Source: Rhizodiscina lignyota
Lineage: Eukaryota
Direction of reading: 5' to 3'
Assembly: GCA_010015805.1 (NCBI GenBank)
Contig: ML978131.1
Coordinates: 620,001 to 684,000 of the forward strand
Length of the DNA stretch: 64,000 nt
The notes below the pieces were generated by a model that searched no databases, was not told the DNA's origin, and saw only the letters and a program-made list of their open reading frames with translations. The position numbers were made by a program, and so were the translations under genes. Within the stretch, counting starts at the first letter, position 1. Each line of letters opens with the position of its first letter. Shown here in pieces: positions 6,148 to 40,750 of this stretch.

Positions 6148-6219
6148 TCTTATTGGCATTTATGAAGCAATCTTGAAAGTGCTATTTGCAATCTGCCATT
6201 GGCCCATTATTTTCAACAG

Positions 6220-12001: not shown

Positions 12002-13851
12002 TGCGGAGAAGCCGTGAGCCTCATGTGCCTTCGAACGCGCTTCGAATAGAGGCGCCAGAAGTCTTAAGAGTCAACAGCGACGGATTGTGAATGATTCATT
12101 TGGACTGAAGGGGAGAGCAAAGAGATTTTGTATTAAGAAAAAGGATTTTACATTGCGCGGTAATAGCCTTGCCGTTGGAAGTTTTGCGCATTTGAGCATT
12201 GTTTCAGCCTCGCAGCCAAGGTTGCTGCAAGACTTGATAGGTCCTTTTAGAGTTGCAGACAAGGGCTGCGAATTCCAGCCAATCCAAAGAGAACACACAT
12301 CTGAAGTTCACCTTTTTGATATGCGCCACACTATATGCAGCAAAGAAACAGTACGTAAGTGATGAGAACGCGAAATGTGTTCGTGGACCACGCTTTTGAG
12401 CAGCAGGAGGCAGGCTCCCTTGGCTCTCCCTGTCCTGTCCTGTCCTGTTAGCGTTCCAACTGCCGGAGTATAGCCAAATTGTCGGCCCGGCACGATACGA
12501 TAGCGTGGTGCCCATTTTCCGTCTCGGAGGCTCGAGAAAACCGTCGAGTGGTTTCAAGGATGAAAGGATATCCTCACGTCATGCCGGATTGCAGACGGGT
12601 TTTTGGACCCAGAACTACGTGGGTTCCAGTATCTTTTCTTGGCTGCTCAATACAGCTTTGTCTAAACTCAGCAGCAGTTAGACAGAGGGTAACTGCTCGT
12701 CGTATTTCCTTCCCCCATGACAATGACAGGGCACGAGATACGCCAGAATCATTAGGAGTTGGCTGTGTGAGAGGTCAAAAAGCAAGTTTCAATGCCGTAT
12801 CCAGGTCAAGCATTTGGCGTGGCCTTATATCATTTCTTGCGTGAAGCATGCTTGCAGATCCTACCCCTATTGAGGAACCCAGGAATGGGTTTTCGATATC
12901 CGTGCCACCCTGCTTCATGGAGTTCGAGCCGCATGGACATCACGATGCCCTCATATCGAATTGCCTCGCACGTGTTTTGTCCATGACAGGGAAGTGGCTT
13001 GAGCGCATGGAACTTCATGTTCCTATCTCGTGTGGCTGACGATAAACCTCCTTGCTCCCCAAACCAATTAGCGGAACGGATGTCGCCGCGCCCATGGACA
13101 ACCCAGAGTGTCCGAAATGATCGATATTTGTCTGAGCCTCTGAGGTCAACCGTGAGGTGGCCCAAGTCCGGGTGGAATCGCTGTGATTGTGAAAAGGGGC
13201 TTCGAGACATTGGATTGACGCGTCTGTTGGGTTGGCGATCTATGTACCGTATTGTGTTATCTTGAGCTTGCATTTAGTCATTGCAGCGGCTCTCTGATCA
13301 GACATTATTCTAGGCAAGTGAGGATTGCGTCTAATGCAGCCATGTGGAGTTTGCAGTGCGGAGAGCGATTCCGGCGTGCAGATCTAGCCTCGTCGAAGTA
13401 AAGTGTTCCACCGACATTACGAAGTCGGTGTCGAGGTGGTCAGAGGGATCAGCCAACAATTGCATGCCCATCACGTCTTCGCTGGGACCTGGAGGCGATG
13501 GGGCAAAATTTGATATGGGTGGGCGAGGCTTGACTGGCCATCCCGGCGTGGAGGATGGGCGACGAAAGCCCAGCCATCGATGCACGTTGACGCCACATCC
13601 CAACGCCGCCCGCCGAGGGCTAGGGCCGTCAATTGCCAGCCCACGTTGCTCCAACAACTTTATCAGAGCGCAGGCTCCTCAGGGTCCAGTTAAATTTCTG
13701 GCGAGCTACTTAAGACATCACTCGCTCGTCAATTGAGCTCCTGACCCTCCCCCTCTTGCTCCTCAAACCTCCCGCGCCGTGCTTTCCAGTGTCCAGTGTC
13801 CAGTTGCACAGAGCCGGTCCCGCAGTCGATCGCCGCGCATCCTTCCTGCAG

Positions 13852-13936
13852 GTGAGCGAGCGCCCTGATACTTAAATTTCGTCACCCGGCAGCTTTTCTT
13901 GGAGCTCCAACTAACAGCTTTTCCGCTGCTCTACAG
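13852..13936 (+). other. Probable 5'-UTR intron of ugp1
   Basis: CAG|GTGAGC donor, CTAAC branch site and CTACAG acceptor, 48 nt upstream of the ATG at 13985. Confidence 0.65.
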
Positions 13937-13984
13937 ATCCTCAACCACCTCACCAAACACTCTTCAAGCCCACAATCAGACACA

Positions 13985-16205
13985 ATGGCGTCAAGAGCGA
14001 TCCCTTCACACCTCAAGCCCGCCGCTGCTGCGAACAACGCAACCAACGGCGATGCTGGCGAGTTTGCCCGCCGACACCATGGCAAGACTCAATCACACGT
14101 GGTGAGTACAGGAACCTTCATTTCAGCTGGTCATGCCTCCTCGAATGCCTCCGTCACATGCTGGAGCTCCTGGCCTTGCTTGCACATCCCTCCGACGCGG
14201 CAAATTTCCGAGCAACACAGGTTTTTGGCTGGCTCGAGCTTTCCGCACAAGGGGTGTGTCCAAGCAAGCGACACTGCTTGACTTCAACGTGGCACAAAAC
14301 TCTACTCGACTCTCGAATACCGACGATATCCTCGAATGGAGCGTATGAAGCAGAGCATCTACGTCATTGATTTCGCGACCAGTGACAAGAAGCGTCTGCG
14401 CCTCGTGAGCACTCCTGCAGAAGCTCCCTTGCCCGGTTTCGCAGACACCGCGGTGTGAAAATCGCCTTTTGGCAAGATCGACAACTCAGCCTCCAACCAC
14501 ACACCGCTCGACACTCGTGCATCCTACGAGCTTGCACATCCAATCGACCTTCAACACTATTTTGAGGCAAAATAGCTTCCAGGAGCTCCAGCTGGCGAAA
14601 TGGGCAGAAACGACTCGTGGAGTGCATGCATCACCAGTTTTGCTTTTCTTTGTCATGGAACATATGCTAACCATTATACCCTCTATAGGCGTTCGAGAAC
14701 ACCTCCACATCTGTGGCGGCCTCGCAAATGCGCAATGCCTTGAACAACTTGGTAGACACAGTCCAGAATCCGGAGGAAAAGAAGGTACGAAGCCCTTCAA
14801 GCATACGAGGGAGAAATCGCTAACACAGCTCTCATAGCGCTTCGAGACTGAGATGGACAATTTCTTCGCACTCTTCCGCAGATATCTCAATGACAAGGCC
14901 AAGGGTACTGCTATCGACTGGGAACGCATCGCTCCCCCGAAGCAGGACCAAGTCGTCGAGTACAGCACCCTTGCCAACTCGGATTCCGTCGAATACCTCA
15001 AGAAGCTCGCGGTTGTCAAGTTGAATGGCGGTCTGGGTACATCTATGGGTTGCGTTGGCCCCAAGTCGGTCATCGAGGTCCGTGATGGCATGTCCTTCCT
15101 CGACCTGTCGGTTAGGCAGATTGAGTACCTCAACCGCACCTACGACGTCAACGTCCCCTTCGTCCTCATGAACTCCTTCAACACCGACGCAGATACCGCC
15201 AACATCATCAAGAAGTACGAGGGCCACAACATCGATATCATGACCTTCAACCAGTCCCGCTATCCCCGTATCCTTAAGGACTCTCTCCTCCCCGCCCCTA
15301 AGACCGCCGACTCTCAAATCTCAGACTGGTACCCACCAGGTCACGGTGACGTGTTCGAGTCGCTCTACAACTCTGGTATCCTCGACAAGCTGATCGACCG
15401 CGGCATCGAGATCATCTTCCTCTCCAACGCTGATAACTTAGGTGCGGTTGTCGATCTCCGCATTCTGCAGCACATGGTTGACACCAAGGCGGAATACATT
15501 ATGGAGTTGACAGACAAGACCAAGGCGGACGTCAAGGGTGGCACAATCATCGACTACGAGGGCTCCGTGCGCCTGCTCGAAATCGCGCAGGTGCCGAAGC
15601 AGCACGTCAACGAATTCAAGTCGATCAAGAAGTTCAAGTACTTCAACACCAACAACATCTGGATGAACCTCAAGGCGGTCAAGCGCGTCGTCGAGAACAA
15701 CGAGCTCGCCATGGAGATCATCCCCAACGAGAAGAGCATCCCGGCCGACAAGAAGGGCGAGGCAGACCTCTCCGTCGTGCAGCTCGAGACCGCCGTCGGT
15801 GCCGCTATCCGCCACTTCTCAAACGCGCACGGTGTCAACGTCCCACGTAGACGCTTCCTGCCCGTCAAGACGTGCTCCGATCTCATGCTCGTCAAGTCCG
15901 ACCTCTACACCCTTTCGCACGGCCAACTGCTCATGGACCCGAACCGCTTCGGCCCGGCGCCGCTCATCAAGCTGGGCAGCGACTTCAAGAAGGTGTCCAG
16001 CTTCCAGTCGCGCATCCCGTCAATCCCAAAGATCGTCGAACTCGACCACCTCACCATCACCGGTGCCGTCAACCTCGGCCGCGGTGTCACGCTCAAGGGC
16101 ACCGTCATTATCGTCGCGACGGAGGGCAGCACGATCGATATCCCGCCCGGCTCGATCCTCGAGAACGTGGTGGTGCAGGGAAGCTTGAGGCTCTTGGAGC
16201 ATTAA
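13985..16205 (+). CDS. ugp1: UTP-glucose-1-phosphate uridylyltransferase (UDP-glucose pyrophosphorylase); exons 13985-14101, 14689-14784, 14838-16205; 526 aa
   Basis: [38 protein letters not shown]-terminal [22 protein letters not shown]-terminus; strong C-ending codon bias; canonical splice sites keep frame. Confidence 0.97.
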
Positions 16206-16765
16206 ACGGGCCCCGTCTCTTGGCTCGGCAACGTGCAGACATGGGTGTGCGCGTTCGGCATGCGGCTGCGAGCGTGCAGGGGCGTGGCTGCGTAGACATC
16301 ATCATGATTGGGATACCGGCAGGCAGGCATAGCTGTTTTTGTTTGCCCACATTTTGCGGTCCTGTACCCTGATACAATTCTCTCTCCGAGCAGATAAGAC
16401 CTTTCGCGGTCTGTAAACTAGACTTTCCATCTTATAATAGCAATTCACGACGAAAAGAAATCCAACACTGGTTAGAAGAACTGGTACTTTGATAAAATGT
16501 GCTGACTTGGATGATATCTAAAATTATCTGCATGTGAATTGTACCTATTGTGGAGGAAAACAGTAGTGTGATATTCATATTCTGGGCTAGTGAGAGGGTA
16601 TCGAGCAGTTGCGGCGACTTGGAGCCTTGCGGTGCAAGTAAAATTACATGCTGGAACATTTATACAAGCTCATTTCATATGCCAAAAATCCTTCAGACCA
16701 CTGATCGGTTTAAAGGCTCGGGAGGAAACGGCATGAAAACTTCGATGCCTCGTTCATCTCTTTTG

Positions 16766-26791: not shown

Positions 26792-29700
26792 CTACCGCGA
26801 TAGATACTTCTCAAGATCATCGTTAGACACTTCGTGCATGGTACCCTCACATACCCATACATCCCCCACCCGAGTGTACACAAAGCCATTCTCACAGCTT
26901 CCTAAATCTCGTATTGCTTTCTGGATATCCTTCTCTCTGGCCTTCTCATCCTCCATTTGCTTGATTCTGTCCTCAGCCTCCTTCCATCTACGCATCTCGT
27001 CCTCATTGAAACCATGTTGCTCTGCATTCCTCCGGAATTCCACCGATGCCTGCTTTAGCCGATCGATTTCCCCATCTCTGGCAGCGATATATTCATCCTG
27101 GGTTTTTTTTGCCTCCTCTATCTGGCGCCGTGTTGCATCATCCACGACCTCGTGCTGATGGGGTCTATTTGGTCTCTGGCCGTCATCACTACTTGAGCTC
27201 GAGGAGAAAATGTCATCGATGCTCAGCAAATCTTCTTCGTACTCCTGCTCGTCTTCGTCTACCTCTTCGATTCTGCGGAACTTGGTATCAAGTGGCGAGA
27301 AAGGTGGCTCGTCGTCGGGGATGGATGTGATGGAATCTACGCGCTGCACTGGTCGAAACACACTGGCAGTCCCCGTTTGGGCACGATCAGTATGTGTGTG
27401 CATAGTTGGCGGCGGCAAAGAGTGACCGAAATCACTTGCAAATGGGTTGGCTTTCGGGCTGATCACATGGTCATGCTGGTCAGCTGGTTTGGAGTTGGAC
27501 CGGTCTGCGTGAGTCTCCCACTCTTGATTAATGCGAGCCATGACTGTTTCTGCAGTCACCGGTGGGAGACCATCCAGATCACTGGCTGTGTTGTCCACCA
27601 TCTCTTGGAGATGTGTGAAACCGATACTTTTCGCAAGAGCCTGGATGTGATGCGCGTTGCTCCAAGTTGAGAGACGGTTGACGTCGTTGAAGTATTCCAG
27701 AACCTTCTTATATGCCGTTGAAGATGGATCCTCCAGAAATGGTGCCTCGACCTGGCCTTTTTGAAGCTCATGGTTCAGTAGAGACACGCACTTGTCCGGC
27801 CCGATGTTCTCAAATTTGATCTCCTCAGTGAATAGACCAGACAGCCCCGGCCGAGCAGCCATGAGCTGATTCATTTCATCTGTGAGACCGACGAGAACCA
27901 CAACAATCCTACCCTTGTTTTCTACCATGCTCAAAAACTGTATCAATTCGTTTGCAGCCTCACTGGCGTAGTGAGGCTCTTTCAGTTGCTGAGCTTCTTC
28001 GATGACAAGAACTTTGCCAAGCGCCTTTTGGAGCTGGAGCTTCGTTTTGGGTGCTGTTTGACCAATGTACTGGCCAATCAAATCAGACGAAGTGCAAGAA
28101 ACCACCGTACTAGTGGATAAGAAGCCAATGTCGTAAAAGATTTTGCCCATTTCGAGAGCAGCGGTCGTCTTTCCAGTGCCTTTGATTGGTCAGAAATGAA
28201 CATAACACAGACGGGCCACGTACCTGGAGGCCCTTTGAAGATGAAATTTGTTGGCACCCAGTCTCTGGGATCAAGCCCGCGCTTGTGGGCAACAATTGAA
28301 AGTTTCTGGAACCTTTCCAGCTTCACAATGACATTCTCACCAACCCGACCTTCGAGAAGCTTTCTGCAGGTCCCAACACCAGCTGAGGTCCTATTAAAGT
28401 TTGGATCGATATCCTGTGACTCGAACACCACCTCAAATGGACGCTCCAAAACATCAACATTTGCATACCTGCTCTCATAATTCATCTTGGCATCAGCCAT
28501 CAAGCGTTCAACTTCGCCTGCATTCGAAAAGTTTGGCCGCATCAATGCTCTTTCGAAAATTCCGCGGGCAACCTCGTAGGCATCATCAGTAGCATCCAGG
28601 TCTTGCTCTTTCATCTTCTTCCGCATGATATTTTCCAGCTCTGAAACAGTGAAATTGTCAAACCGAAAGGGACTCTCGATCGGAAATCGCCTGGACAGTC
28701 CAGGATTGGCGTGGTGGAACATGTTCTTCAGCTTGTCTTCATAGCCGACGAGGATAATAGCTCTGTCCTCGCCCAAGACACCTTGGACTTCGGCAACAAT
28801 CGTATCAATGACACCACTACGGTATGAGTCTGTTTGCATGTCGCCGGGGTGGAGCATATACGCTTCGTCAATAACGAGCACTTTTCCAACTGTAGAGGCT
28901 AAAATGGCCCTTGTATTGGCCTCCGACTTGCCCACGGCATCGCCGATGAAATCTGAAGGGTTCTTAAGAACAACTAATACAGTCAGCTAGCCCGAAGCTA
29001 TGTGGGTGCTGCGTACCATCACCCCGACTAAGGAGTCCAAGGTCGGCCAGAATTTGACCATACAATCTGGCAACCGTTGTCTTTCCCGTCCCTGGATTGC
29101 CAACAAAGACTTGGTTCAGGGGTACTCTGACTGGATTCCTCTCGGCAAGTTCACGTTTATAGTTAAACTCGATCATCCTAAACAGTTGCTTCACAGACTT
29201 CTTGACGCTATCGAGTCCGATCAGCTTCTCCAACTCTTTCCAGGCCTGGCTGTCTTTTGAGGCTTGTGATGGATCCGGTCCGATCAGGTCTTCCTTTTTG
29301 AAAAAGAAACGGTCAGGATCTCCATGGTTGTGCTGGTCGTTTTTGTGTTTCCGAACTTCATTTCTTATGCGTAAAGCTTGGCGTTCCGAAATGGTGGCAA
29401 GAAGGTTCTCAACCGCACGAGCATTGCCAAACGACTTGCTTCCACGGCCAAGACCCAGTCGGCGAATGGCAATGTGCATATACAAGCCGCCCATATCGTC
29501 GTCGACCTTCATTCTTCCACCGTACTTGGCCTCAATCTTGTCACACATGATTTTCCAGAGTTCGTCATCCGAAAAGTCGGCAAAAGTCAGTGTGTATGGA
29601 ATTCTACTCGCCAATCCAGGATTGTGCTCGAAGAAAGCTTCCATGTCGCTCTTGTACCCTGCGAAAATGGCCAGCAGCTTCTCAATATTGTTCTCCATTT

Positions 29701-31034
29701 CTGTGAGAATGACGTCGAGTGCTTGCCGCCCTTGGTTGGATGAGTGTGGCGCAACAAGTTGATACGCTTCATCAACGAAGAGCGTGCCTCCATCAGAGTC
29801 GCTTAATAGTTTCTTGATACTCTTCTTGGCGCCTTTTGGCCCTCTATACGCCAACTTTGCTCCCGTGGTGTTCTTCATCTTTTTCGATTCCAAAGCTCCA
29901 ACAAGGTGCATGAACTCTCCATAAATTAGGGCAACAGTCGTCTTCCCTGTGTGAATTTGGTCAGTATGGTTTGGACGGAGAGGAACATCTCTAACCTGTT
30001 CCGGGGTTCCCTTGGAAGATGACGTTGAACCTCTCTGTTTTCACGTTCACTTGGTGTTTTTTGTGATCACGACTGCGATTACGCTTGCGCTTGCGATATG
30101 ACCAAGTATCGCTATCCCAACACTCACTGCCACTATCGGAGTCGGAATTGAGCGCGGCCTGTTGATCTCGGCAGGTATCGATCTTGGCTAAAATTGAAAG
30201 AAATTGAGCCTTCACTTCTTCCAGCCCAACCAAGGCCATCAGCTGATCGATCTTCTGTGCCCATTCCTCGTTGGTAATGTGCTCGTTTTGTTGCTTGTGC
30301 TTTTCCCATTCTTCTTTTGCGGTAGATGGCTTGAGTTTGAATCGTTTAGCGGCAGCAATGTTGTCAAGTGCTGGCATTTCCTGAGTTTTTGTCTCCTTTG
30401 CTGGATGCAATGAATCTTCTCCTGCTGGATCTGGTGGACGTTCCGAGGTTTCTGCCATTTCCGGAGTTGGCATGTCATTTGGTACTGGCATGTCTTTGGG
30501 TGTTAGTGCATCTTCTGACGGGGATGCATCTTTTGACAGTGGTGCATCTTCTGGCTCTGGCGCATCTTCTGGCTCTGGCGCATCTTCTGGCTCTGGCGCA
30601 TCTTCTGGCTCTGGCGCATCTTCCGCTCTTGGTGCTTCATCCTGTGATGGTGTATCCTCTGATACTGATACAGCTTCTGATGTTGGTGTATCTTCTAGCA
30701 CTGTTGCCTCAGTTTCTGACGCTGGAAAATCTTCTGATACTGCCGCCTCAGCTTCTGGTATTGATGCATCAGCATCTTCTTCAACACCCTGATCATGCGC
30801 CTCTCCTAGAAGCGAAGCATCTGGCTTTCCTGCACTATAAGATATGGAAGTTCGACGAGAAGACCCTGCACTGTGAATTCTGTTGACTTCTTCCTCCGGT
30901 TCGGACTTTGGGCTTGGAGGCGACGACAAGCTGGGTCCTGAGGATTCACTGCTTGCTAAAGGGGCCGCTGCGTCTTCCTCAGTATCTGATACCACTGCAT
31001 CGAGGGATGCTGACGCTGCAGAATTGGAGTCCAT
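26792..31034 (-). CDS. Triple CbxX/CfxQ(SpoVK)-type AAA+ ATPase with an acidic N-terminus and a C-terminal Cys/His motif; exons 31034-29996, 29946-29017, 28973-28224, 28179-26792; 1368 aa
   Basis: Walker A GNPGTGKTTVA, GNPGTGKTTVAR, GPPGTGKTTAAR; Walker B LFVDEAY, LVIDEAY, LVIEEAQ; NPGLASR, FGNARAVEN; C-terminal LGSCENGFVY...WVCEGTMHEVS; three 43-49 nt GT-AG introns restore one frame. Confidence 0.9.
30544..30623. repeat. Perfect 18-bp coding tandem repeat, 4.4 copies (PEPEDA units)
   Basis: (GCATCTTCTGGCTCTGGC)4 plus GCATCTTC, flanked by degenerate 18-bp units. Confidence 0.95.
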
Positions 31035-31917
31035 TGTCTCATTGAAAGCTCGTCTGAAGAAAGGAAATATGTGCGCTACGTGATGCTAGCTTTTGAGTTT
31101 TGACTTTGAATTTCGAGTTCATACCCTTTTGCGCGTACAAACATTCGAACGTGCCTAGCCAGCTTCCACTTGTATCGATGCGGAGATGGAATTGGGCGCT
31201 TGCAGATACCAACGTGTCGGATGGGACGCAGACCTGCATTCAGCCTCGCGGTCACTCTGGACTCGACAAGCAACCCTGTCGGGCTCGACACAGTTATTGG
31301 CGTTGCCTCATGCTTGACCGACGCTTCCGCTTAAGCCATGACCCACATCAACTCTCGGACGAATTTTACTGTTCATTGAATCGGTTAATCAGTCGAAGCC
31401 TGCTGAGGTGCGAAAGATGCACCTTCTGGGCCGCTAAATTCAGCGATATTTGCTAAGGGAAAGGGGTTCTCAGCCGGATAGAGTAAGTACGGCGAAGCCG
31501 GTTGGGCACGGAAACTGTATCTATGGATTCCGACTCAACTTCATGCAAAAAAACATCGTTAGTGTGATGTATGTCGAACAGCGTTTGCAAAATTCGGAAG
31601 TTAGCTATTTCAATTGAGGTGCTTTTTTGGAAGTTCAGCTTGAAACGCAGCTGCCGGCGTCACGCTAGCAGGGGTTACTCATCTGGTTTCGGCAGGACCC
31701 GCATTGCTTCTCACTTCGTGGCTTTCACCGGTTCCTCCTTTTGATTCCCACCTTGTGCTTTGCGCCTCATGTTTTGCAATGGACTTACACGTGTCTCCAT
31801 TGCACCTATCCACTCCAGTGACGAAGTATGCTAGGTGAGTCTAATCTTTAAACGCAGTAGCTGATAAATCTTGCATGCGGTTATCTAGTGATTGGAAGAA
31901 CTATGTGACGACGCTTT

Positions 31918-32799
31918 CTAGACCAATTCGATACGGCCGTTGGTGTCATCTTCAGCCTCTTCCTCCTCTTCGTCGGCCAAATCCAGATCAAAATCATTCA
32001 CGGTAAGCTTCGTGAGGTCAAGTTCTTGTTTGTCCTCTTCCCCAAACGCAGCCTCGTGCTTTTGTGGCTGCAATCCTTGTCGGTCCATGCGGATCTCTTT
32101 TAGTATGTTCATCTTAACAAGGCTGTATGCGACAGCAATGATCTCGTCCTTGCCAATAGTCTGCTTTCTATCGCGGCTCAAGCTAGCCGAGGCATTGTAG
32201 TCAACTGAAGGGTCCAAAGCCTCTGCAGGGATCAATCCGGGGGAAGCTCCGGCTGCTGTGAGTGCAGTTTTAACAGGGATTTTCGCGTTGACTTTGTCGC
32301 TTGAGCTCGAATCGGTTGTTCTTTCCCAAGACGCATCACTGGTGGTGAGGAAGCCAGTGACGAAGTAGCCCTTTTTGCCTTTGGTGGCCAAAAGGAACTT
32401 TTTGACATCAGCTCGATAATGTTGATCATCCATGAGTTCCTCGAAGAATTCATCCGGGTTCTGAAGTCTGTATTCATCTACAGACTTGGGGTGCATGACG
32501 ACGGTCTCCTTGGTATCTGTGTCAAACTGGAGCCCGAGAAACTCGCCAACACCGGCGCCAAACCCTCTTTTCTTACCGGCCACAACATGATCTTTGGTGA
32601 TATTGCGTGTCACTGGCTCTGGAAGAAGATCCTCAATGAGATCCGCTGGACGATGCGCTGGAATCTTCGCGGGCTGGCGTTTCGAAGGAGCATAGTTATC
32701 GAGTGGACGAAGTTTGTCCGCGACAATAAGGCACATCAACTCATCTTTCTCCTTCGAAGCGAGGGTGTCGTCAAGAACAAAGAAGCGCCGACCAGCCAT
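31918..32799 (-). CDS. Gasdermin-like pore-forming protein (HET-Q1/RCD-1 family), 293 aa, intronless
   Basis: ATG in CAAAAATGGC context; motif order LIVADKLRPL, YRLQNPDEFFEELM, KGYFVTGFLT, Ser/Thr-rich amphipathic strands, IIAVAYSLVK, then AAF followed by a 41-aa acidic tail; divergent from a CHAT protease gene. Confidence 0.8.
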   Translation of the reverse strand: MAGRRFFVLDDTLASKEKDELMCLIVADKLRPLDNYAPSKRQPAKIPAHRPADLIEDLLPEPVTRNITKDHVVAGKKRGFGAGVGEFLGLQFDTDTKETVVMHPKSVDEYRLQNPDEFFEELMDDQHYRADVKKFLLATKGKKGYFVTGFLTTSDASWERTTDSSSSDKVNAKIPVKTALTAAGASPGLIPAEALDPSVDYNASASLSRDRKQTIGKDEIIAVAYSLVKMNILKEIRMDRQGLQPQKHEAAFGEEDKQELDLTKLTVNDFDLDLADEEEEEAEDDTNGRIELV

Positions 32800-33388
32800 T
32801 TTTGGATAAAGCTTTTTAGGCAAGGTGCGATTATTGATTTGTCGCTAATTGGAGTACCGAGAAGCAAAGCAATGGGAATCAAGCTCGCGTGCACAAGGAA
32901 AGGTTAACAAGAGAATTTCTCAGGCATCCGCCCTCCTAGCCCAGATATCTAGAGTAATGAGTTAGGTACAACGCTGCAATGTCCTGTCCTCAGCCTTGTC
33001 AAATGACGGACAGCTCCAGCTTTGTCTGTGCCCGGCAACTTTAGTCGATGCCACATTACCCAACTCCGCAGTGACGGGACCTCCGGGCTCGTCTAACCTG
33101 GGCCAGGAGAAGGCATGGAGTGGTTTCTCCTGCAAGGCTACCCAACCCCTGCAACTGCAGCCAGCGCATACGCGATAGTTCAACCTGGAATCCAGCGCAC
33201 CAAGGCAAAAAGTGGCGAGCAATCGTATGAGCTGCCAGCCTGTGAAACTTGCAACAGCACTCGTGTGCATTGTTCACTCGACATGCTTCATCGGATTAAG
33301 TTCTGATACTGTCTCCCTCTTGTTTCTTGCTCGAGACGAGACAGGCAAACTAATATTCAAGTCGCCTCTATTATTTCTCCTGTCCAGT
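32800..33388. promoter_or_regulatory. Probable bidirectional promoter of the gasdermin-like and CHAT-STAND genes
   Basis: 589-bp interval between head-to-head ATGs. Confidence 0.5.
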
Positions 33389-36300
33389 ATGGCACCTAAT
33401 GTCGCAATCAACATCACAGCTAGTGAAGCCATTCCCGATGAAGCTGACACCAACGAAGGGCCTGAAAACAAGTTGCATCGCTGGTCTATATCTGTTTCAG
33501 TCAATGGGAAATCTATATACGCCCACAGAGTAATCGAAGATCCGTTCCTGAACCCACACGGAGAAGAAGAAGAGGATAAAAGGGAAGAATGCCGTTGGTA
33601 TGTTGAAGAATTCGCCATCAAAGAGCCGTTTAAGCAACAAAAGGCTTCCGAGGTCGCCGAACAGCTTCAGACATATGCTACGTCTCTACTTACCCAACTC
33701 GGGCTTCAGCAGGTGCTGAAAGATGAGCTGCAAGACGACGCCAACGAGGATGACGCCAATGATAATCCACATGTTTTGATAGCGATTTCAGAAGATTTGG
33801 ACGTTAAGAGCTCAATCCACCGTTTACATTGGGAACTGCTCGAAGATTCAGCCGTGTGGGATCTCCAGGCCGAGATTACTGTCAAGCGCCTTGTCAAAAT
33901 GAGACGTGCTACTCCATCGCTGCTTATTGCAGAGGTGAAACCGGATGAGCAACATCCCACCAAGGTTACGGTAGTGAATGGCTTACTGGTTGTCGCTCGT
34001 GATCTCTCAGAGAGTTCACAGAAGAGTGACATCAATCCTAACCTCGCCTTCGGTGTCCTTGCAAACATTCAAAAGGACCTCGTCAGTTTTTCAGATGGCG
34101 CTCGGCTGAACCTTGAGGTAGTCAGGCCCGGAACTTTCAAGGCGCTACAGGAACACTTGGATCGAGCCGCGGAAATGCACGGCAAGGGCCATTACCATTT
34201 CATCCATTTCGACCTTCATGGGAAAGTAGATAAGGAAACAAGCACTGCCAGCTTGCTCTTCAATGATTCCGAGCTGAACGAAAAGAAACGAGTCGAGGAG
34301 CCTGCTCACAAGGTCGCCTCTCTACTCGGATCTCATAATATCAGCGTTGCCATCCTCAATGCCTGCGAATCGGCCAAGGCTGACTCTGGAGATTCTGCCA
34401 ACGTCGCGAAAACTTTCGTTGACGGTGGAGTTAAGAGTGTTTTGGCAATGTCATACAAACTATCCAGCTCAGCAGCCGAGCCATTCCTCAGGGGCCTCTA
34501 CCATTCGCTATTTCTCGATGGCAACACGCTGCCACAAGCGGCTAGAAATGCTCGAACCATGCTACGTGAGAATCCGCACCGTCATGCAAGGCTTGGTCTG
34601 AAGGTAGCAGTCAATGACTACTTCATCCCAGTCCTCTATAGTCATGGACAGGACCCAAAATTCATCCCTCGACAGAGAAAGCGCATCTCCAGCCAGTTTG
34701 GACTTGTCGACTTTGCGAGGCGCCGTGGAGAGCTTAGGTCTAATGATACCAGGCCTTTGACTGGCCGAGACTTTGACGTTTTGCGATTAGAGAAATGTCT
34801 GATCGAACATGGCAAGGTTCACCTCTCTGGACGTGCCGGTGTAGGCAAGACAGCACTGCTGCGCTACGCAAGTACAATCTGGATCCAGACCTCGTTCATC
34901 GACACCGTTGCATTTATTGACCTTTCCAAAGTCAAGGACTTGCCTAATGCAGTCAATGCTTTGATTTCTCAAATACCGAGAGCGACGGATGAATTGGCAT
35001 ATGATCTCAGGCTGGCACTTGAGTCTGAGAACTCCAACGACAAGTCACTATCGACACTTATTTCAATTTGCTCCGAACAATCACTTGTATTCGTCGTCGA
35101 CAGCATTCCATCCGACAAGCAGATCAAAATGTCTCTCGATCCAAACGACATGACAGACTTTAAAGCCATGGACCGCTTCCTGGGAACGCTGCTTCGGCTG
35201 AACGAAACCGTGAAATCGACTCGTGTTATTTTTGTTTCCCGATTGAATGGGGACGAATTACCAATCTCCAAGGAATTGCATACTGGCATCAGTGGCGTAA
35301 CCATGAGGCTCCAACCACTCGGATTAGATGATGCTGTTCAACTGAGCCAGTTGATCCTCGAGAGCTCCGGGCTGCATATGGATGACTGGAAAGACAGTCA
35401 CGACCGACAGCTCAAGCTGCTTGTTGGTCTGTGCGACGGCAACCCTTCAGTAATTGCGCAGGTTTCTCACCAGATGCCCAGTTCTGGTAAATCGCTTGAA
35501 GACTTTCTGGACCAGATCCAGGTCGGAATTCCTCCAGAGCATCAAGCCTTTGGCGAAGGACAGGATCTCGTTGATGAGCTGGACCATATATTCAACTCAT
35601 TCAACGATGAGCAGCGCGCTTTCTTCATCTTCATCAGTGTCTTTTGGACTGAAGCTTTTCCAATCTCCTATTTCACTGACTGGATTGTTGCAATGGAGAT
35701 ATGCAAGGACCAGAGAAATAGTCTAGCCATCCAATATCTTCAGGCACGGGGCATTATCGAGCTTGGACTGCTAATGACGAAGCCCAACGACGAGGAAACC
35801 GGATTAAAAATGATCACTTGGATCCACCCACTCCTTACGACATACGGTCGAAGAATTGCGTACAACACGCTCGCGAAGAAACGAGGCCGCCTGGGGAAAA
35901 GCCAAATCGAGGCAGCTACACTGGTTTGCCTGGTAATGGGCACAAAGTTCAAGGCGGGAAGGCAGTCTAAAAGGTTTCTCGCTTTGAGTCAGAGCGTGTT
36001 CCTCTGGCTCATTCAAGGTATTGCGGGTGCTGACGGTCAACGACTGGCGGTATCCATCTTGGAAGGGCTAGAATATGCGAAGCTAGCTTCCTTCCTGCCT
36101 CTTCAAACGGGTAACTTAGCTCTCTGTTTATCGTTATGCCTACGTCTGCCTCTGGAATTATGGCGTCTAGATTATTTCGAGTTCCATGTTGCCAACCTAC
36201 GCTTGGTCGCTAGACCCGAACATCTGGAGCAATTCACTCGCCGCTTTGGGGATCTTCTAGACAAACTTTTGGAGCTTAACGGCGGATGTGCCATTCCACA

Positions 36301-37996
36301 AGCATATCTCGCTTTCAGCCTCCTCACAGCAATCAGCCTAGCAGCAATATATTCCTCGGAATGGCCACGCAAGGAAATGCGTGAGAAATACGTGAAGCTT
36401 GCTCTTCGGATCGTTGAAGACACCGAGGAGAATGAACTCAAGAACAGTGGGGCCAATCCATTCCCCGTGGGTTCACGGGCATTTTACATGAAGGGACTAG
36501 CATATCGCCACGAACTCATGCTCGAACTGGAACGAGGAAATCTAGAAGCAGCCTTTCAGACCTGTGACAAATGTCTCGAGATTGACGAATCTCTCCTAAA
36601 ACACATGGAAGGGGGTGCCCAGTTAGTCGAATCTTCGCTGGACGATGCCAGAATCAAAGAGATGGCCAACCTGTTCCCTAACCAGCAATCAGCTAACGTA
36701 GCCAAGGAGAGGTTAGAGGCCATATCGCAGAACAAGATGGCAGTTGCTTACACTGAGTCTCGCGTGACTCTTCTGAACACTGTTAAAGTGTATCTGGCCG
36801 AAAAAATCGGAAAACATATAGACCCGCGCTTCAAGAGGCAGTACAATCCCAGCAAGCTCGGGGCCAAGATGGGCGCGAAACGTGGGAAAGGAGCAATGCA
36901 TGCTGTTAATCAGGCGGGAGATCTGATGGGTCTCTTGAACATGAACAAGGCCTCTGACTGGTACGATGGGAGCGACTACATGGATGAGTTCGTGGATCAT
37001 CGAAATAGCGAAGAAGAGAGGCTGAAAGATCTCGACCGCGATATCGGGCTGGGGAACATTCCAAGGGCAACAGAGACATACGCCAAGGTCATCGCATCTT
37101 CACTGCGTAGCCTGGACCTCGATCGCACAGGGGCGTATCTCAGCGGCCTCGCTGATTTCGCCCAGCACAATCTCATACCAAGCATGGAAAATGTAGACTG
37201 GGTTGGCGGGCAGACTCTCTTTGGTAGCCTCAAGACGACAATGAACATAGTCACGGGAAAGTCGACTTCCAAGGACCATAAAGTGGACCACGTGGTAATC
37301 GACAAAGCCTTGCAAGAGGAGATTCGCGTGCTCGAGGAGAGCAATGCACATCCTGACCTAATCAAAGCGGCTAAGATGCGTCGTCGAGGGTGGTTGAAAG
37401 ATCCGGACGCACTCAAGCACGGTGGTTCCCCTGAAGAAAACAAAATGCGCGAAACCAACACGAAAAATGCATTACACATCCTGATGGATAATGCGGGCCG
37501 GCCTGGATACCAGGAAAGACTGGTTGCGGCCAACGTCGAGTTCGAGTCCTTGAAGACGCGGGTGGTGGATGGGGAACAAGCTGTACAGGCCGCGTGGAAC
37601 TCGGGCAAGAAAGCACGAAGTATGGAAGACGAACCGGACATGATGAAAATGTACAAAGACATCATCGCCGCGTTGGATGATATGCAAACGTTCTGTGCAA
37701 AACCAGGCAACGAGGTATTCCGTGCCGTCTTTGGGGACGGCGAGACGTATTTCGACGAAAATCGTGAGCCGTATTTGGTCAATCTCGCTGCTGAAGCGGT
37801 GCGCGAGTCCTTTCAGAACGCCATTGTGCGCGGAGATTATGATGGGGCCCAGAGAGTTGTTGAGGGCTTTAAGGGCAGTTTGGATGAGAAGCTGCGTCGC
37901 AGCGCACATGCGGAGAAGATTGTGAATGGATGGCAAGCGATGATCGATGAGGGACCAGCGAATATAGCAGAATTTCGAAAGTTGATGGGCAGATGA
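33389..37996 (+). CDS. CHAT (caspase-like) protease - STAND/NB-ARC-like NTPase - helical/TPR-like NLR-type protein, ~1535 aa, intronless
   Basis: IHRLHWELLE; catalytic dyad HFIHFDLHG (His277) and ILNACES (Cys326); VLAMSY; Walker A GRAGVGKT; Walker B-like LVFVVD; CDGNP (GxP); IHPLL (MHD-like); TPR-like GNLEAAFQTCDKCLEI, GDYDGAQRVV. Confidence 0.88.
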   Translation: MAPNVAINITASEAIPDEADTNEGPENKLHRWSISVSVNGKSIYAHRVIEDPFLNPHGEEEEDKREECRWYVEEFAIKEPFKQQKASEVAEQLQTYATSLLTQLGLQQVLKDELQDDANEDDANDNPHVLIAISEDLDVKSSIHRLHWELLEDSAVWDLQAEITVKRLVKMRRATPSLLIAEVKPDEQHPTKVTVVNGLLVVARDLSESSQKSDINPNLAFGVLANIQKDLVSFSDGARLNLEVVRPGTFKALQEHLDRAAEMHGKGHYHFIHFDLHGKVDKETSTASLLFNDSELNEKKRVEEPAHKVASLLGSHNISVAILNACESAKADSGDSANVAKTFVDGGVKSVLAMSYKLSSSAAEPFLRGLYHSLFLDGNTLPQAARNARTMLRENPHRHARLGLKVAVNDYFIPVLYSHGQDPKFIPRQRKRISSQFGLVDFARRRGELRSNDTRPLTGRDFDVLRLEKCLIEHGKVHLSGRAGVGKTALLRYASTIWIQTSFIDTVAFIDLSKVKDLPNAVNALISQIPRATDELAYDLRLALESENSNDKSLSTLISICSEQSLVFVVDSIPSDKQIKMSLDPNDMTDFKAMDRFLGTLLRLNETVKSTRVIFVSRLNGDELPISKELHTGISGVTMRLQPLGLDDAVQLSQLILESSGLHMDDWKDSHDRQLKLLVGLCDGNPSVIAQVSHQMPSSGKSLEDFLDQIQVGIPPEHQAFGEGQDLVDELDHIFNSFNDEQRAFFIFISVFWTEAFPISYFTDWIVAMEICKDQRNSLAIQYLQARGIIELGLLMTKPNDEETGLKMITWIHPLLTTYGRRIAYNTLAKKRGRLGKSQIEAATLVCLVMGTKFKAGRQSKRFLALSQSVFLWLIQGIAGADGQRLAVSILEGLEYAKLASFLPLQTGNLALCLSLCLRLPLELWRLDYFEFHVANLRLVARPEHLEQFTRRFGDLLDKLLELNGGCAIPQAYLAFSLLTAISLAAIYSSEWPRKEMREKYVKLALRIVEDTEENELKNSGANPFPVGSRAFYMKGLAYRHELMLELERGNLEAAFQTCDKCLEIDESLLKHMEGGAQLVESSLDDARIKEMANLFPNQQSANVAKERLEAISQNKMAVAYTESRVTLLNTVKVYLAEKIGKHIDPRFKRQYNPSKLGAKMGAKRGKGAMHAVNQAGDLMGLLNMNKASDWYDGSDYMDEFVDHRNSEEERLKDLDRDIGLGNIPRATETYAKVIASSLRSLDLDRTGAYLSGLADFAQHNLIPSMENVDWVGGQTLFGSLKTTMNIVTGKSTSKDHKVDHVVIDKALQEEIRVLEESNAHPDLIKAAKMRRRGWLKDPDALKHGGSPEENKMRETNTKNALHILMDNAGRPGYQERLVAANVEFESLKTRVVDGEQAVQAAWNSGKKARSMEDEPDMMKMYKDIIAALDDMQTFCAKPGNEVFRAVFGDGETYFDENREPYLVNLAAEAVRESFQNAIVRGDYDGAQRVVEGFKGSLDEKLRRSAHAEKIVNGWQAMIDEGPANIAEFRKLMGR

Positions 37997-38806: not shown

Positions 38807-40750
38807 ATGGCGACGGCGCAAGAGGCGTCGCCCGCGCCGACGGAGACGGAGACAAGAGAAGCGATGGAGTTTTGGGGATATCTATTCAAGCCGGACAAGT
38901 GTGGCACGGATATGCTGAACAACTTGCTCAGAGGAATTGCTATTTATATTGTATGCGGACACCCGAAATTCCCTCAGATCTCCTTCACTGCAATCGCTCG
39001 GATACAAGTTCTACATGCAGACTATTTGATGTTTACGCAAAGCTAATCGCAACCTCATTCACAGTCTACCAAACTCTCCCCCGACTCATGTCAAGACCTC
39101 CTCCCCTCCCAACTCGCCGAGTTCTACCGCGCTGTCGGTGGCAACTACGACATTCTCTTCATTGACACCCCCCTCTCCTCCCTCTCCTTTATCTACAAGT
39201 CACTCGGGTGCCTACACTCCATCCAACCCAGCGCAACCGACGATGGCTATACGGGCCCCAGCGTCCCCGCCTTGAAGCAGAAAGGCTTCATAACATGGCA
39301 AACAATACAACTCCTTCTTGGTCCGGAGGAGCATGTGCCGTTCCTCCAGCACGCGGTGAAGCAGTATGACATTGTGAATCCAGAGACAGGGGCGCCATTC
39401 CCAAAGGTCCTGCCGAAGGAAGCGTTCCCGGAGAAGCCAGACCCGGCGATGCAGAACTGGTACGAGGAGGTTTCAGAGCGGCTTTCGCGTGATGCGGAAG
39501 CTGAGCGGGATATTAAGACGGCCGGCGCAGGACCTAGTCGCGCACCTCGGCCAGGTGTTGATGCGCAAGTAGAAGTCAGCAGCGATAGCGACGACGAGAG
39601 GAGCCAGGCTGCAAAGTATTTCTCCAATCCGCTATATCGCGACGGCGACGGTCGGCCGCGGATTGTGAGGAGGGGATCGAAGCAGAGGCCGTACAGTCCA
39701 CGCGAGACTCTGTATGATAGAGGGAAAGCTGTAGTGCATGGCGTGAGGCACTTTATTTCGCCTTCATATGACGGTGGGCGGCGAAGGAGAAGCTATCCCG
39801 AACGCCGCGATCAAATCAGCGTCGTAGATGGTGACGTGGAAGAAGAGGATGAGGAAGACATTGGGCCGACCACATTACATCCTACATACGTGCCGCGTGT
39901 GGCAAGAGAGCGGCAGGCCGCCGCTGCGGCAGCAGCACAAAGGCGACGGCAAGAGACGCCTTCAACCGAGCCAGACAGCTCAGAAGACGAGCCCCCTGGG
40001 TCGTCAAGGCCACCAGGCAACCAACCCCCGCCGCCTAGTGCACGACCGCCTCTGCACCATAGACGAAGCGACGACCCGTCGACCGGCCCGCGGGATTACT
40101 TCCCACCACAAGGGCCACTGTATCCCCAGCACGGCCGCCGGCATTCAGCACACAGTCCGCTGTATGCAGGCAGTCCAGGCGCTAACGGCTTTGAACCAAG
40201 CGATAGCCCCCTGTTTGCGACGCAGATCGGGCAGGCGAGTAAGTCCGGTGGGCCTCCTCGACGCGCTGGTGGCTCGCCACTACGAGGAGAGTATAATCGA
40301 AGAGATTCAAGAGACCCTAGAGACCCCAGAGATAGAAGAGATCCTAGAGATGCAAGAGATCCTAGAGATGCAAGAGACCCTAGAGACCCTAGAGACCCAC
40401 GCGATCCGCGAGATGCAAGAGACGCAAGAGATCGATACGAGCGCGACGGCCGACCCGAACGACCGCCTGCGGGCCGGAGAAGGAGTAGTTCGGGACATAC
40501 ATATACGAGTTATGATCGGCCTCCGGAGTTCTCGCCTGCATATAGAGTGCAGTCCGAGCGAGACCAACGAGCGCAGGAGCGGGAAAGGGAGAGGCTGAGA
40601 GAGCGGGATAGGAGAAGGAGTCGTAGTCAGGGGCATAGTAATGAGCGGCCAAGGATGCCGAGACATATCACCCCAGTGGATGGCGTGGGTGGGAGGAGGT
40701 ATGTGAGTCCGGTTTGGGGGAATCGATATGACCCACCGGCCTCGGGATAG
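38807..40750 (+). CDS. Conserved fungal protein with a DUF7514-like N-terminal domain and an Arg/Asp/Pro-rich disordered C-terminus; intron 38951-39064
   Basis: FWGYLFKPDKCGT...LLRGIA|...LAEFYRAVGGNYDILF...SLGCLHSIQP...PALKQKGFITWQTIQLLLGPEEHVPFLQ. Confidence 0.75.
40301..40435 (+). repeat. 9-bp coding repeat, 15 x R-D-(P/A/S/R)
   Basis: AGAGAYNNN-type units encoding RDSRDPRDPRDRRDPRDA... Confidence 0.9.

Follow-up and report, generated by a model that had tools for sequence, protein, structure and literature searches.

In bacteria, gasdermin genes reportedly reside in operons beside a protease gene of caspase-like or trypsin-like type (Johnson et al. 2022; Wein et al.), and operons with more genes are said to include an ATPase, which would be a STAND/NLR-type sensor and not a CbbX-type AAA+ protein. 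In contrast, at the fungal locus studied here, which lies within a 64-kb stretch of DNA (the window), an NLR with a CHAT domain, encoded next to a gasdermin-like gene, already takes the STAND role (Table 1). For fungi, Clavé et al. 2022 (PMC8851545) give CHAT-type neighbours for 353 of 1,884 gasdermins (19%), and a related TPR-CHAT/gasdermin pair in that study is the source of the tail-removal mechanism proposed below. The locus resembles these clusters in that a gasdermin fold with a short C-terminal extension is found beside a CHAT-P-loop NTPase gene, but it differs in that a triple AAA+ gene is conserved as a third neighbour. The three-gene clusters of Clavé et al. combine a gasdermin with two proteases, whereas the window holds a gasdermin, a protease-NLR and an AAA gene. 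Neither 'AAA' nor 'CbxX' occurs in the main-text passages and three spreadsheets searched from that study, the window locus is absent from its Dataset S1, and a published description of a link between the AAA gene and the gasdermin/CHAT-NLR pair was not found in the literature searched.

The third gene product resembles the bacterial proteins CbbX (the activase of red-type Rubisco), SpoVK and EccA, as each of its modules has a GxPGTGKT Walker A motif and an AAA_lid_6 lid. The bacterial proteins are single-module, whereas the window protein carries three modules in one chain, adds a long disordered N-terminus, a coiled-coil and a Cys/His C-terminal domain, and is a fungal protein with no link to Rubisco, spore coats or type VII secretion. 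The triple AAA core and a C...C...H motif are also shared with fungal Upf1/ZNFX1-like helicase-AAA fusions (~2,000-2,300 aa); unlike these, the window protein is devoid of a helicase domain and falls into a 17-row clade of stand-alone proteins, apart from the fusions.

Table 1. Features of the three-gene locus, in window positions.
Feature	Position	Strand	Remark
AAA+ gene, triple CbbX/SpoVK/EccA-type	26792..31034	-	1368 aa, four exons
AAA exon 1	31034-29996	-	splice junctions read, CDS open
AAA exon 2	29946-29017	-	splice junctions read, CDS open
AAA exon 3	28973-28224	-	splice junctions read, CDS open
AAA exon 4	28179-26795	-	stop codon 26792-26794
AAA N-terminal low-complexity region	30345..31034	-	~230 residues; rich in Ala, Glu, Ser, Pro, Asp
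Module 1 Walker A GNPGTGKT	29939..30011	-	split by intron 1
Module 1 Walker B LFVDEA	29765-29782	-	
Module 2 Walker A GNPGTGKT	29078..29101	-	
Module 2 Walker B LVIDEA	28861-28878	-	
Module 3 Walker A GPPGTGKT	28166..28233	-	split by intron 3
Module 3 Walker B LVIEEA	27992-28009	-	
AAA C-terminal charged helical stretch, then Cys/His motif	26825..27148	-	stretch from ~residue 1251
Cys/His motif C-x13-C-x4-H GSCENGFVYTRVGDVWVCEGTMHEVS	26825-26902	-	residues 1333-1358
Spacer, gasdermin stop codon to AAA start codon	31035..31917	.	883 bp
Gasdermin-like gene	31918..32799	-	293 aa + stop
Divergent promoter region, gasdermin to CHAT-NLR start codons	32800..33388	.	589 bp
CHAT-P-loop NLR gene	33389..37996	+	1535 aa + stop
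CHAT domain of NLR	~33953-34585	+	Pfam
HFIHFDLHG in CHAT	34196-34222	+	
NACES in CHAT	34358-34372	+	
P-loop GRAGVGKT of NLR	34829-34852	+	

The gasdermin/CHAT-NLR pair

A full HMMER scan yielded 144 relatives of the gasdermin-like protein. Pfam gave no match for the protein and the 70 relatives used for a family profile; against the PDB, this profile matched N. crassa RCD-1-1 (E 5e-4) and, further down, rcd-1-2 (0.017) and the HET-Q1 pore (0.47). Structural modeling with AF2 (pLDDT 76) followed by a Foldseek search returned gasdermins for all of the best 12 matches at a probability of 0.99-1.00, led by the RCD-1 pore (E 1.7e-7). By family profile and predicted fold, we assign the 293-aa protein to the gasdermins. 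The model comprises a beta-rich core (residues 1-235), an acidic disordered linker (237-282) and, at residues 289-292, a terminal strand predicted with confidence, the latter two being consistent with a putative C-terminal inhibitory tail. CbbX-type motors engage tails such as a disordered acidic linker with a docked terminal strand, and the predicted tail of the gasdermin-like protein resembles these.

In the NLR, which has a long, helical C-terminal region, Pfam identified CHAT (1.4e-12) and AAA_16 (1.4e-4). The motifs HFIHFDLHG and NACES, whose His and Cys we take to be the caspase-like catalytic dyad of CHAT, are kept in the window and in a second locus (L001, see below) and are visible also in KUL86672.1. 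The start codons of the NLR and gasdermin genes are divergent and 589 bp apart, within the 10-kb criterion for protease neighbours, and the N-terminus of a CHAT-NLR was likewise observed upstream of the gasdermin in L003. KUL86672.1 (CHAT + P-loop_NTPase in Dataset S2 of Clavé et al.), which shows visible homology to the window CHAT-NLR, and KUL86674.1, a member of the 40%-identical gasdermin cluster, appear as a gasdermin/CHAT-NLR pair in the lists of that study (PMC8851545). Judged by sequence, the pair is thus of an already known kind, and the identities that a preliminary description of this DNA had given to both genes are upheld by profile, fold and Pfam CHAT evidence.

The triple AAA+ protein and its relatives

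The same description had proposed a triple CbxX-type AAA+ ATPase, which is borne out by Walker A and Walker B motifs, three of each, and by family models that match in three stretches each, namely spore_V_K TIGR02881 (2.3e-120), cbbX_cfxQ TIGR02880 (1.2e-110) and T7SS_EccA TIGR03922 (1.8e-97) of NCBIfam; Pfam identified AAA and AAA_lid_6. Since all NCBIfam scores are under the equivalog cut-offs, the protein is classified by sequence as CbbX/SpoVK/EccA type and as an equivalog of none of the three. Its sequence match in the PDB is CbbX (3syk, 7.1e-39), and the AF2 monomer (pLDDT 84) superimposes on CbbX in Foldseek with a TMt of 0.73-0.76; two-module stretches compared with the stacked D1-D2 of Drg1/Cdc48 gave a TM of 0.40-0.46, so that the protein might assemble either as a stacked hexamer or as a planar dimer.

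Three GT-AG introns (49, 43 and 44 nt) interrupt the gene, and the NCBI protein P0001 matches exons 2-4 at 100% identity. As this NCBI model deviates in exon 1, a further in-frame intron may be present there. The N-terminal region contains four PEPEDA repeats (nt 30543-30614) and is fast-evolving (19-25% identity to its L001 counterpart). Walker A and Walker B are intact in 3/3 modules in the window and L001 alike, and the positions of introns 1 and 3, inside Walker A codons, are common to both genes. The C-terminal Cys/His motif noted earlier is also real: when 23 C-termini (from the window, L001 and 21 homologs) were aligned, both Cys proved to be kept in 23/23 and the His in 22/23, the only exception being P0015 with a Cys in place of the His. 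The motif occurs in stand-alone as well as helicase-fused proteins of this alignment.

The family search yielded 410 matches, of which 120 were listed (gene models <808 aa would escape). The earlier statement that triple-CbxX proteins can be fused to an Upf1-like helicase proved correct, with PF13087 in 49 of the 120 homologs listed (hand count) and AAA_11 plus AAA_12 in both proteins subjected to a direct domain scan (P0012 and P0038, residues 474-1035, N-terminal to the AAA modules). For some homologs, the source databases give the name NFX1-type zinc finger protein 1 or Hrr1, which stems from automatic annotation. In the AAA tree, the window protein is placed in the stand-alone clade (SH-aLRT 100), while the other large clade consists mostly of long proteins (52 of 62 rows with 1,900 aa or more). 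A helicase domain was found neither in the ORFs of the window (Pfam) nor in the stand-alone clade, and the idea that the window protein is a remnant of the helicase-fused form was rejected on account of this separate clade.

A second locus with the same arrangement

Seven loci were fetched, and long flanks are present only in L001, the other six being too short or belonging to other gasdermin clades; L001 is also the sole one of the seven within the 5-row gasdermin clade of the window (SH-aLRT 100). Its three genes, for a CHAT-NLR (-), a gasdermin (+) and an AAA protein encoded in several exons (+), follow one another and are oriented relative to each other as in the window. In both loci, the AAA gene is located downstream of, and co-oriented with, the gasdermin gene, as described before for the window, at a spacing of ~0.9-1.1 kb. 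The identities between the two loci amount to 41% for the gasdermins, 41% over 1578 aa for the NLRs and 51% overall for the AAA proteins, with 65-83% in the AAA core. DNA similarity is limited to the three coding regions, and third positions of conserved four-fold codons are identical at 0.29-0.42 only; synonymous sites are thus saturated, indicating that the adjacency is old. Besides the three genes, none is common to both loci within 10 kb on either side, and 0/12 other L001 ORFs have a homolog in the 64-kb window. The linkage, which might have been chance in a single genome, is accordingly more than that, and the recurrence of the triad in a second, anciently diverged locus is a new result, of the kind that the gene-neighbourhood survey proposed in the preliminary description aimed at. 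The proposed 'accessory block' around the locus was not recovered, as neither flanking repeats nor a shift in composition was found.

Purifying selection on the AAA core is strong, and both AAA genes are intact and, by sequence, look functional. The least conserved part of the NLR is its putative sensor region (25-34%), which, given the highly conserved AAA core, fits poorly with an NLR that reads this core. The 589-bp divergent promoter and its L001 counterpart have a slight excess of common 7-mers and 8-mers (observed counts reached by 0/200 and 4/200 shuffles, respectively). For the 883-bp spacer, k-mer conservation was not above shuffled controls, and k-mer comparison revealed no motif common to the divergent promoter and the spacers upstream of AAA.

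Possible role of the AAA+ protein

Based on the two loci, a functional coupling of the AAA protein to the gasdermin/CHAT-NLR pair appears plausible, though tentatively so. In the core fungal pyroptosis-like module, the CHAT-NLR, divergently transcribed from the gasdermin, would combine an NLR-type sensor with a caspase-like protease at its N-terminus, and the protease would presumably activate the gasdermin by cutting its short acidic C-terminal inhibitory tail, a step adopted by analogy from the TPR-CHAT/gasdermin pair of Clavé et al. 2022. As its modules match the remodeller CbbX, which pulls on tails, it might be speculated that the AAA protein is a conserved facultative third member, acting as an active ATP-driven remodeller on the protease-gasdermin axis rather than as the primary sensor; this is our preferred, if still tentative, reading, next to which a guarded decoy and a co-sensor, both named in the preliminary description, are further candidates. 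In bacteria, tandem AAA proteins of this type occur fused to protease domains (Trypsin_2 in P0061, Peptidase_M41 in P0054), which in the manner of a Rosetta stone hints that such AAA proteins cooperate with proteases. The motor might unfold or extract the tail and so hand the substrate over to the CHAT protease, or, as a safeguard, it might take apart assemblies of the NLR or of the gasdermin; its partner and direction of action are speculative. If true, the gasdermin/CHAT-NLR cell-death module would have a third working part, an ATP-driven motor. Counting against coupling, the triad is known from two loci only, and, as the gasdermin-NLR adjacency is expected anyway, the AAA-gasdermin junction alone is informative, and a single conserved adjacency is weak evidence.

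Nearly as plausible is a reading in which the AAA gene serves a cellular role of its own and the junction was inherited or hitch-hiked unbroken in two lineages. The AAA family has many members, most of which are unlinked or fused to a helicase, and this argues for a function of its own; its core is conserved at 65-83% compared to 41% for the pair, as for a housekeeping-type gene beside fast immune genes, and the lack of a motif common to the promoters is in line with this reading. The components are, moreover, found apart. The closest named ortholog among the matches listed, KUJ17460.1 of Mollisia scopiformis (73-75% identity in exons 2-3), is >1400 accession numbers from the nearest of four Mollisia gasdermins in the lists of Clavé et al., whose three spreadsheets (PMC8851545) hold no KUJ174xx entries, and stand-alone AAA genes of Fusarium are likewise not close to listed gasdermins. 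Conversely, Talaromyces and Penicillium occitanis possess the orthologous gasdermin/CHAT-NLR pair, and no Talaromyces AAA is among the 120 matches listed of 410 (gene models of at least 808 aa). With the Mollisia AAA lacking a listed gasdermin nearby and the Talaromyces pair a close AAA among the matches listed, the triad looks, on this indirect evidence, facultative and not obligate. Against mere hitch-hiking, the outer flanks have both been replaced, yet the junction, its orientation and spacing were kept despite saturated synonymous sites. The L001 and window AAA proteins form a 3-row clade (SH-aLRT 99), within which L001 branches outside the window and Mollisia, two members of different fungal classes; under vertical descent, the adjacency would be older than a class-level split, and microsynteny in Pezizomycotina is usually lost across such splits.

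We consider it unlikely that the AAA protein, as the stand-alone relative of the helicase-AAA fusions, serves immunity or surveillance in a pathway of its own and is clustered with the gasdermin/NLR module in a fungal 'defence island', comparable to the clusters of bacterial defence genes. Fungal defence islands are raised as an open hypothesis in a 2023 review (PMC10197012). In favour of this reading, the sister AAA clade carries a fused Upf1-like SF1 helicase, with some members named after ZNFX1 or Hrr1, and the L004 gasdermin has a convergent Argonaute/Piwi neighbour, so that a gasdermin is found next to a gene of RNA-surveillance type for a second time, but an immune link of the family is unsupported, PADLOC giving a marginal IetA match (1.9e-4) only, the names are automatic, an NFX1-type zinc finger was absent at E 1e-8 from the two fused proteins scanned, and the rest of the window encodes ordinary metabolism, transporters and transcription factors.

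A gasdermin, a CHAT-NLR and an AAA+ ATPase in one gene block

The 293-aa protein encoded in the window is a gasdermin, since the profile of its relatives matches N. crassa RCD-1-1 (E 5e-4) and its predicted fold matches gasdermins: the 12 best Foldseek matches of the AlphaFold2 model (pLDDT 76) are all gasdermins, and an atlas look-up agreed with this identity. Pfam gave no match for the protein or for 70 of its relatives, and a phmmer search against the PDB returned nothing meaningful; the relatives (n = 144) were collected by a full HMMER scan, word-indexed homolog searches having returned 2 and 3 proteins. The predicted C-terminal tail is acidic and disordered and closes with a docked terminal strand. 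The model is closer to pore-state protomers (RCD-1, GSDMD and Trichoplax pores, ranks 1-4) than to autoinhibited crystal forms, of which RCD-1-2 ranks 12th and Bradyrhizobium bGSDM 49th, and its long hairpins may be a modelling artefact.

The plus-strand ORF encodes an NLR of 1535 aa whose front portion carries a CHAT protease (Pfam CHAT, 1.4e-12; motifs HFIHFDLHG and NACES; P-loop GRAGVGKT). PADLOC returned marginal matches alone (IetA, 1.9e-4; SAVED_CHAT, 6.5e-5 for the NLR), which we treated as uninformative. In the main text and spreadsheets of the fungal gasdermin survey by Clavé et al., a CHAT-protease gene is located at most 10 kb from 353 of 1,884 fungal gasdermins (19%), some with NLR architecture, and a Podospora gasdermin is described as being cleaved by a neighbouring TPR-CHAT protease (PMC8851545). 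Dataset S1 of this survey lists KUL86672.1, annotated CHAT + P-loop_NTPase, as the partner of KUL86674.1 from Talaromyces verruculosus, which falls within the 90% cluster of a 40%-identical relative of the window gasdermin, and the sequence printed for KUL86672.1 is plainly homologous to the window NLR (PMC8851545). As this listed pair is homologous to the window genes, the gasdermin/CHAT-NLR pair is, judged by its sequences, a member of a described class. The Rhizodiscina lignyota locus itself has no entry in Dataset S1, which is therefore not exhaustive (PMC8851545).

Genes of the block in the window and in L001, the gasdermin locus on a metagenome contig
Sequence	Feature	Position	Strand	Details
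Window	AAA ATPase gene	26792-31034	-	exons 31034-29996, 29946-29017, 28973-28224, 28179-26795; 1368 aa
Window	gasdermin-like ORF	31918-32799	-	293 aa
Window	CHAT-NLR ORF	33389-37996	+	1535 aa
Window	DUF7514 protein gene	39047-40747	+	Pfam 4.9e-46; ~1 kb downstream of NLR
L001	CHAT-NACHT NLR	4787-9331	-	
L001	gasdermin	10001-10936	+	
L001	multi-exon AAA gene	12003-16560	+	co-oriented, ~1.07 kb downstream of gasdermin

The AAA coding sequence consists of four long ORFs in changing frames (26792-31085), joined via three GT-AG introns of 49, 43 and 44 nt. Its start codon is preceded by the gasdermin ORF at a distance of 883 bp, both on the minus strand, in agreement with the preliminary description, which had placed the AAA gene about 880 bp downstream of the gasdermin and co-oriented with it; gasdermin and CHAT-NLR diverge across 589 bp. 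The genes surrounding the block are ordinary, with an MFS transporter, a Ku-like gene, a Zn-cluster factor and UDP-glucose pyrophosphorylase on one side, and the DUF7514 protein, a TRI12-type MFS transporter, an alcohol dehydrogenase, a P450 and other enzymes on the other. The notion of an "accessory block" in the same description finds no physical mark in the window, as direct or inverted repeats of at least 25 nt flanking the three genes and a shift in composition at the block are both missing there. A mobile-element origin was likewise rejected, given the lack of flanking repeats and that the two flanking MFS genes are neither halves nor close paralogues of each other. Within the DUF7514 gene, a 9-nt tandem repeat occurs in 11 overlapping copies (40287-40439).

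The triple AAA+ ATPase and its family

Over exons 2-4, the AAA gene and the NCBI model from Rhizodiscina lignyota (P0001, an 855-aa partial model) match at 100% identity. As P0001 splices exon 1 differently near residue 300, this exon may contain one further in-frame intron. The public model is without about 220 N-terminal residues and without the last 261 residues, the conserved Cys/His motif among them, and the Mollisia scopiformis model (P0002) is likewise cut at its 3' end. The window protein comprises three ATPase modules of the CbbX/SpoVK/EccA type (NCBIfam: spore_V_K, 2.3e-120; cbbX_cfxQ, 1.2e-110; T7SS_EccA, 1.8e-97; each matching in three stretches and all under the equivalog cut-offs), and Walker A (G-x-P-G-T-G-K-T) and Walker B are intact in all three. 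Among solved structures, CbbX (7.1e-39) and EccA1 come closest in sequence. The AlphaFold2 model of P0001 (pLDDT 84) matches CbbX at TMt 0.73-0.76, and a two-module stretch of this model compares with the stacked D1-D2 of Drg1/Cdc48 at TM 0.40-0.46. Two of the three introns (29946-29995 and 28180-28223) split Walker A codons, those of modules 1 and 3, two codons apart; the Walker A introns of L001 (13141-13201 and 15113-15163) occupy the same positions, and the L001 gene has one extra intron of 187 nt.

The modules are preceded by an acidic low-complexity region of about 230 residues, in which PEPEDA is repeated four times. On their C-terminal side, a disordered linker leads to a charged helical stretch and then to a C-x13-C-x4-H motif (window 26825-26902, minus strand), which is kept in 23 of 23 aligned C-termini, both stand-alone and helicase-fused. 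In one of these proteins the His is swapped for Cys, which fits a putative metal site. Each chain offers just three candidate metal ligands, located after the charged helical stretch; a site common to two chains, acting as a candidate dimerisation hook, would fit as well.

Homologs of the AAA protein were searched among proteins of 808-2305 aa, and 120 of 410 matches were listed. The statement, in the preliminary description, that such fungal proteins are usually fused to a ZNFX1/Upf1-like helicase applies to the family at large, with the Upf1-like helicase domain PF13087 in 49 of the 120 listed homologs by hand count, whereas the window protein sits in a separate stand-alone clade. Some of the listed homologs bear the source names NFX1-type zinc finger protein 1 or Hrr1. 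In two helicase-fused proteins that were scanned directly, AAA_11 and AAA_12 occupy residues 474-1035, N-terminal to the AAA modules, and an NFX1 zinc finger is lacking at E 1e-8. The helicase-fused proteins fall in a separate clade of 62 rows, 52 of them with a length of at least 1,900 aa, and the phylogeny indicates that the window AAA belongs to a distinct stand-alone lineage. In bacteria, the relatives consist of three to five CbbX-type modules in tandem; some are fusions with a trypsin-like domain (P0061) or with an M41 peptidase and nSTAND3 (P0054), and another, from the Bacillus cereus group (P0021), carries N-terminal TPRs.

Recurrence, age and possible meaning of the linkage

Linkage was assessed by scanning a metagenome contig collection with an eight-sequence gasdermin alignment, which yielded seven loci; two scans of a prokaryote genome collection recovered no stray fungal contigs. 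L001 is the only one of the seven with long flanks (20.8 kb of a 34.7-kb contig were examined), and its genes are arranged exactly as in the window. Reconstructed, the AAA gene of L001 encodes 1401 aa in an intact CDS; of its four GT-AG introns, three lie at window positions, and all Walker motifs are present. Compared to the window, the AAA is 51% identical overall (modules 65-83%, termini 19-44%), the gasdermin 41% and the NLR 41% (CHAT domain 54-62%, C-terminal region 25-34%). Nucleotide similarity is restricted to the three coding regions: the 12 other L001 ORFs have no match in the 64-kb window, and the flanking MFS and DUF7514 genes of the window have none in L001, so that the DUF7514 gene lies outside the conserved block. 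Third-codon-position identity at conserved four-fold-degenerate residues is 0.29-0.42 and hence essentially saturated. The saturation of synonymous sites and the lack of other shared genes show that the AAA-gasdermin adjacency is old. The AAA core is under strong purifying selection. In the gasdermin tree, the window, L001, the metagenomic protein P0122 and a Talaromyces/Penicillium occitanis cluster form a five-row clade on a long stem (SH-aLRT 100); the AAA tree reads (L001,(window, Mollisia scopiformis P0002)), with support of 99 and 99, within a 17-row stand-alone clade (support 100), and the two trees agree with joint descent. No 8-mer to 10-mer is common to all four intergenic regions of window and L001, the gasdermin-AAA spacers share no more k-mers than shuffles, motif sharing between the promoters does not exceed chance, and no cleavage-site-like motif common to the gasdermin linker and the disordered AAA regions was seen by eye.

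The proposed three-gene linkage thus recurs in L001 in the same order and orientation, but looks facultative rather than obligate, the Mollisia scopiformis AAA ortholog, KUJ17460.1, lying away from the gasdermins listed in Dataset S1 (PMC8851545). Here, linkage was inferred by taking GenBank protein accession order as an approximation of gene order, which is borne out by listed pairs such as KUJ16026/KUJ16027. KUJ17460.1 is 73-75% identical to the window protein in exons 2-3, as close as that of L001, and more than 1400 accessions separate it from the nearest of the four gasdermins that Dataset S1 lists for Mollisia; the three spreadsheets contain no KUJ174xx entry, and the sole Mollisia CHAT partner listed, KUJ16027.1, is a TPR-CHAT protein of different architecture (PMC8851545). 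Similarly, the Fusarium stand-alone AAA genes have no gasdermin listed nearby (PMC8851545). The orthologous gasdermin is present in several Talaromyces assemblies and in Penicillium occitanis, and no Talaromyces AAA is among the best 120 of 410 homologs listed (proteins of 808-2305 aa), near the top of which a triad-clade ortholog should rank. The Mollisia, Fusarium and Talaromyces cases would count, indirectly, against an obligate triad.

The gasdermin-NLR junction is expected in any case, and the AAA-gasdermin junction alone carries evidence of coupling. As this one junction outlived the loss of synonymous-site similarity and of all other local adjacency, with both genes intact, we tentatively propose that the AAA may be functionally coupled with the gasdermin/CHAT-NLR pair. 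Inherited or hitch-hiking synteny is a possible explanation of only slightly lower probability; if such inertia accounts for the adjacency, the locus would be an ordinary case of a class already known. A co-location of independent immune genes is unlikely.

If functionally coupled, the AAA would be a candidate remodeller on the protease-gasdermin axis rather than a sensor. This preference derives from the AAA modules being of the tail-pulling CbbX type, from the fusion of bacterial versions of the same type to proteases, from the acidic, disordered gasdermin tail with its docked strand, and from the putative sensor region of the NLR being its least conserved part while the AAA core is highly conserved. 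That the three genes constitute a true three-component fungal immune system, in which the AAA senses or is guarded and the CHAT-NLR reads its state and then cleaves the gasdermin, seems quite improbable. On this sensing reading, the AAA, related as a stand-alone protein to the ATPase half of helicase proteins of the Upf1/ZNFX1 type, may engage viral RNA-protein complexes; alternatively, it may be a target of pathogen effectors. If the reading were true, all triple-AAA proteins, with or without the helicase, would together make up a fungal immune ATPase family so far unrecognised, and the locus would be a first worked example of a fungal defence island.

Relation to described systems and other gasdermin loci

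The preliminary description had known of no earlier account of the triad, and none was found in the literature searched. The term 'AAA' does not occur in the main text and three spreadsheets of Clavé et al. (PMC8851545), and neither 'AAA' nor 'ZNFX1' occurs in the available text of two reviews (PMC12881547, PMC10197012). The literature search returned no paper joining gasdermin with CbxX or CbbX, none joining SpoVK with fungi and NLR, and nothing relevant on fungal CbxX with ZNFX1. A gasdermin-linked CbbX-type AAA+, of which we found no description, is apparently undescribed and is here based on two loci. The fungal gasdermin systems described so far are two-gene systems, with a sensor-protease and a pore former, or three-gene systems with a second protease. 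Their trigger is presented as the main open question of the field in a review (PMC12881547). A conserved partner driven by ATP would introduce a further layer, be it substrate presentation, a safeguard or sensing, and would open a first functional way into a fungal triple AAA+ family that is very large and unstudied, with many helicase-fused members (ZNFX1/Upf1 type). The locus also bears on fungal defence islands, in which neighbours would predict immune function, an open hypothesis in another review (PMC10197012).

The six remaining loci, all of them short, fall into gasdermin clades other than that of the window, and L003 and L004 alone among them are informative. An AAA is present in one of the seven fetched loci, L001, the sole representative of the window's gasdermin clade among them and the sole locus of sufficient length for a judgement. 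L003 has a CHAT-NLR N-terminus upstream of the gasdermin, and its contig ends 447 nt downstream. The 2.6 kb downstream of the L004 gasdermin hold a convergent Argonaute/Piwi gene and no AAA. In this locus (L004:356-3604; also L002), the gasdermin is 28% identical to that of the window and the Piwi-domain gene (Pfam Piwi, 4.4e-32) is located 1.3-2.5 kb downstream, a second case of a fungal gasdermin adjoining a gene of RNA-surveillance type.
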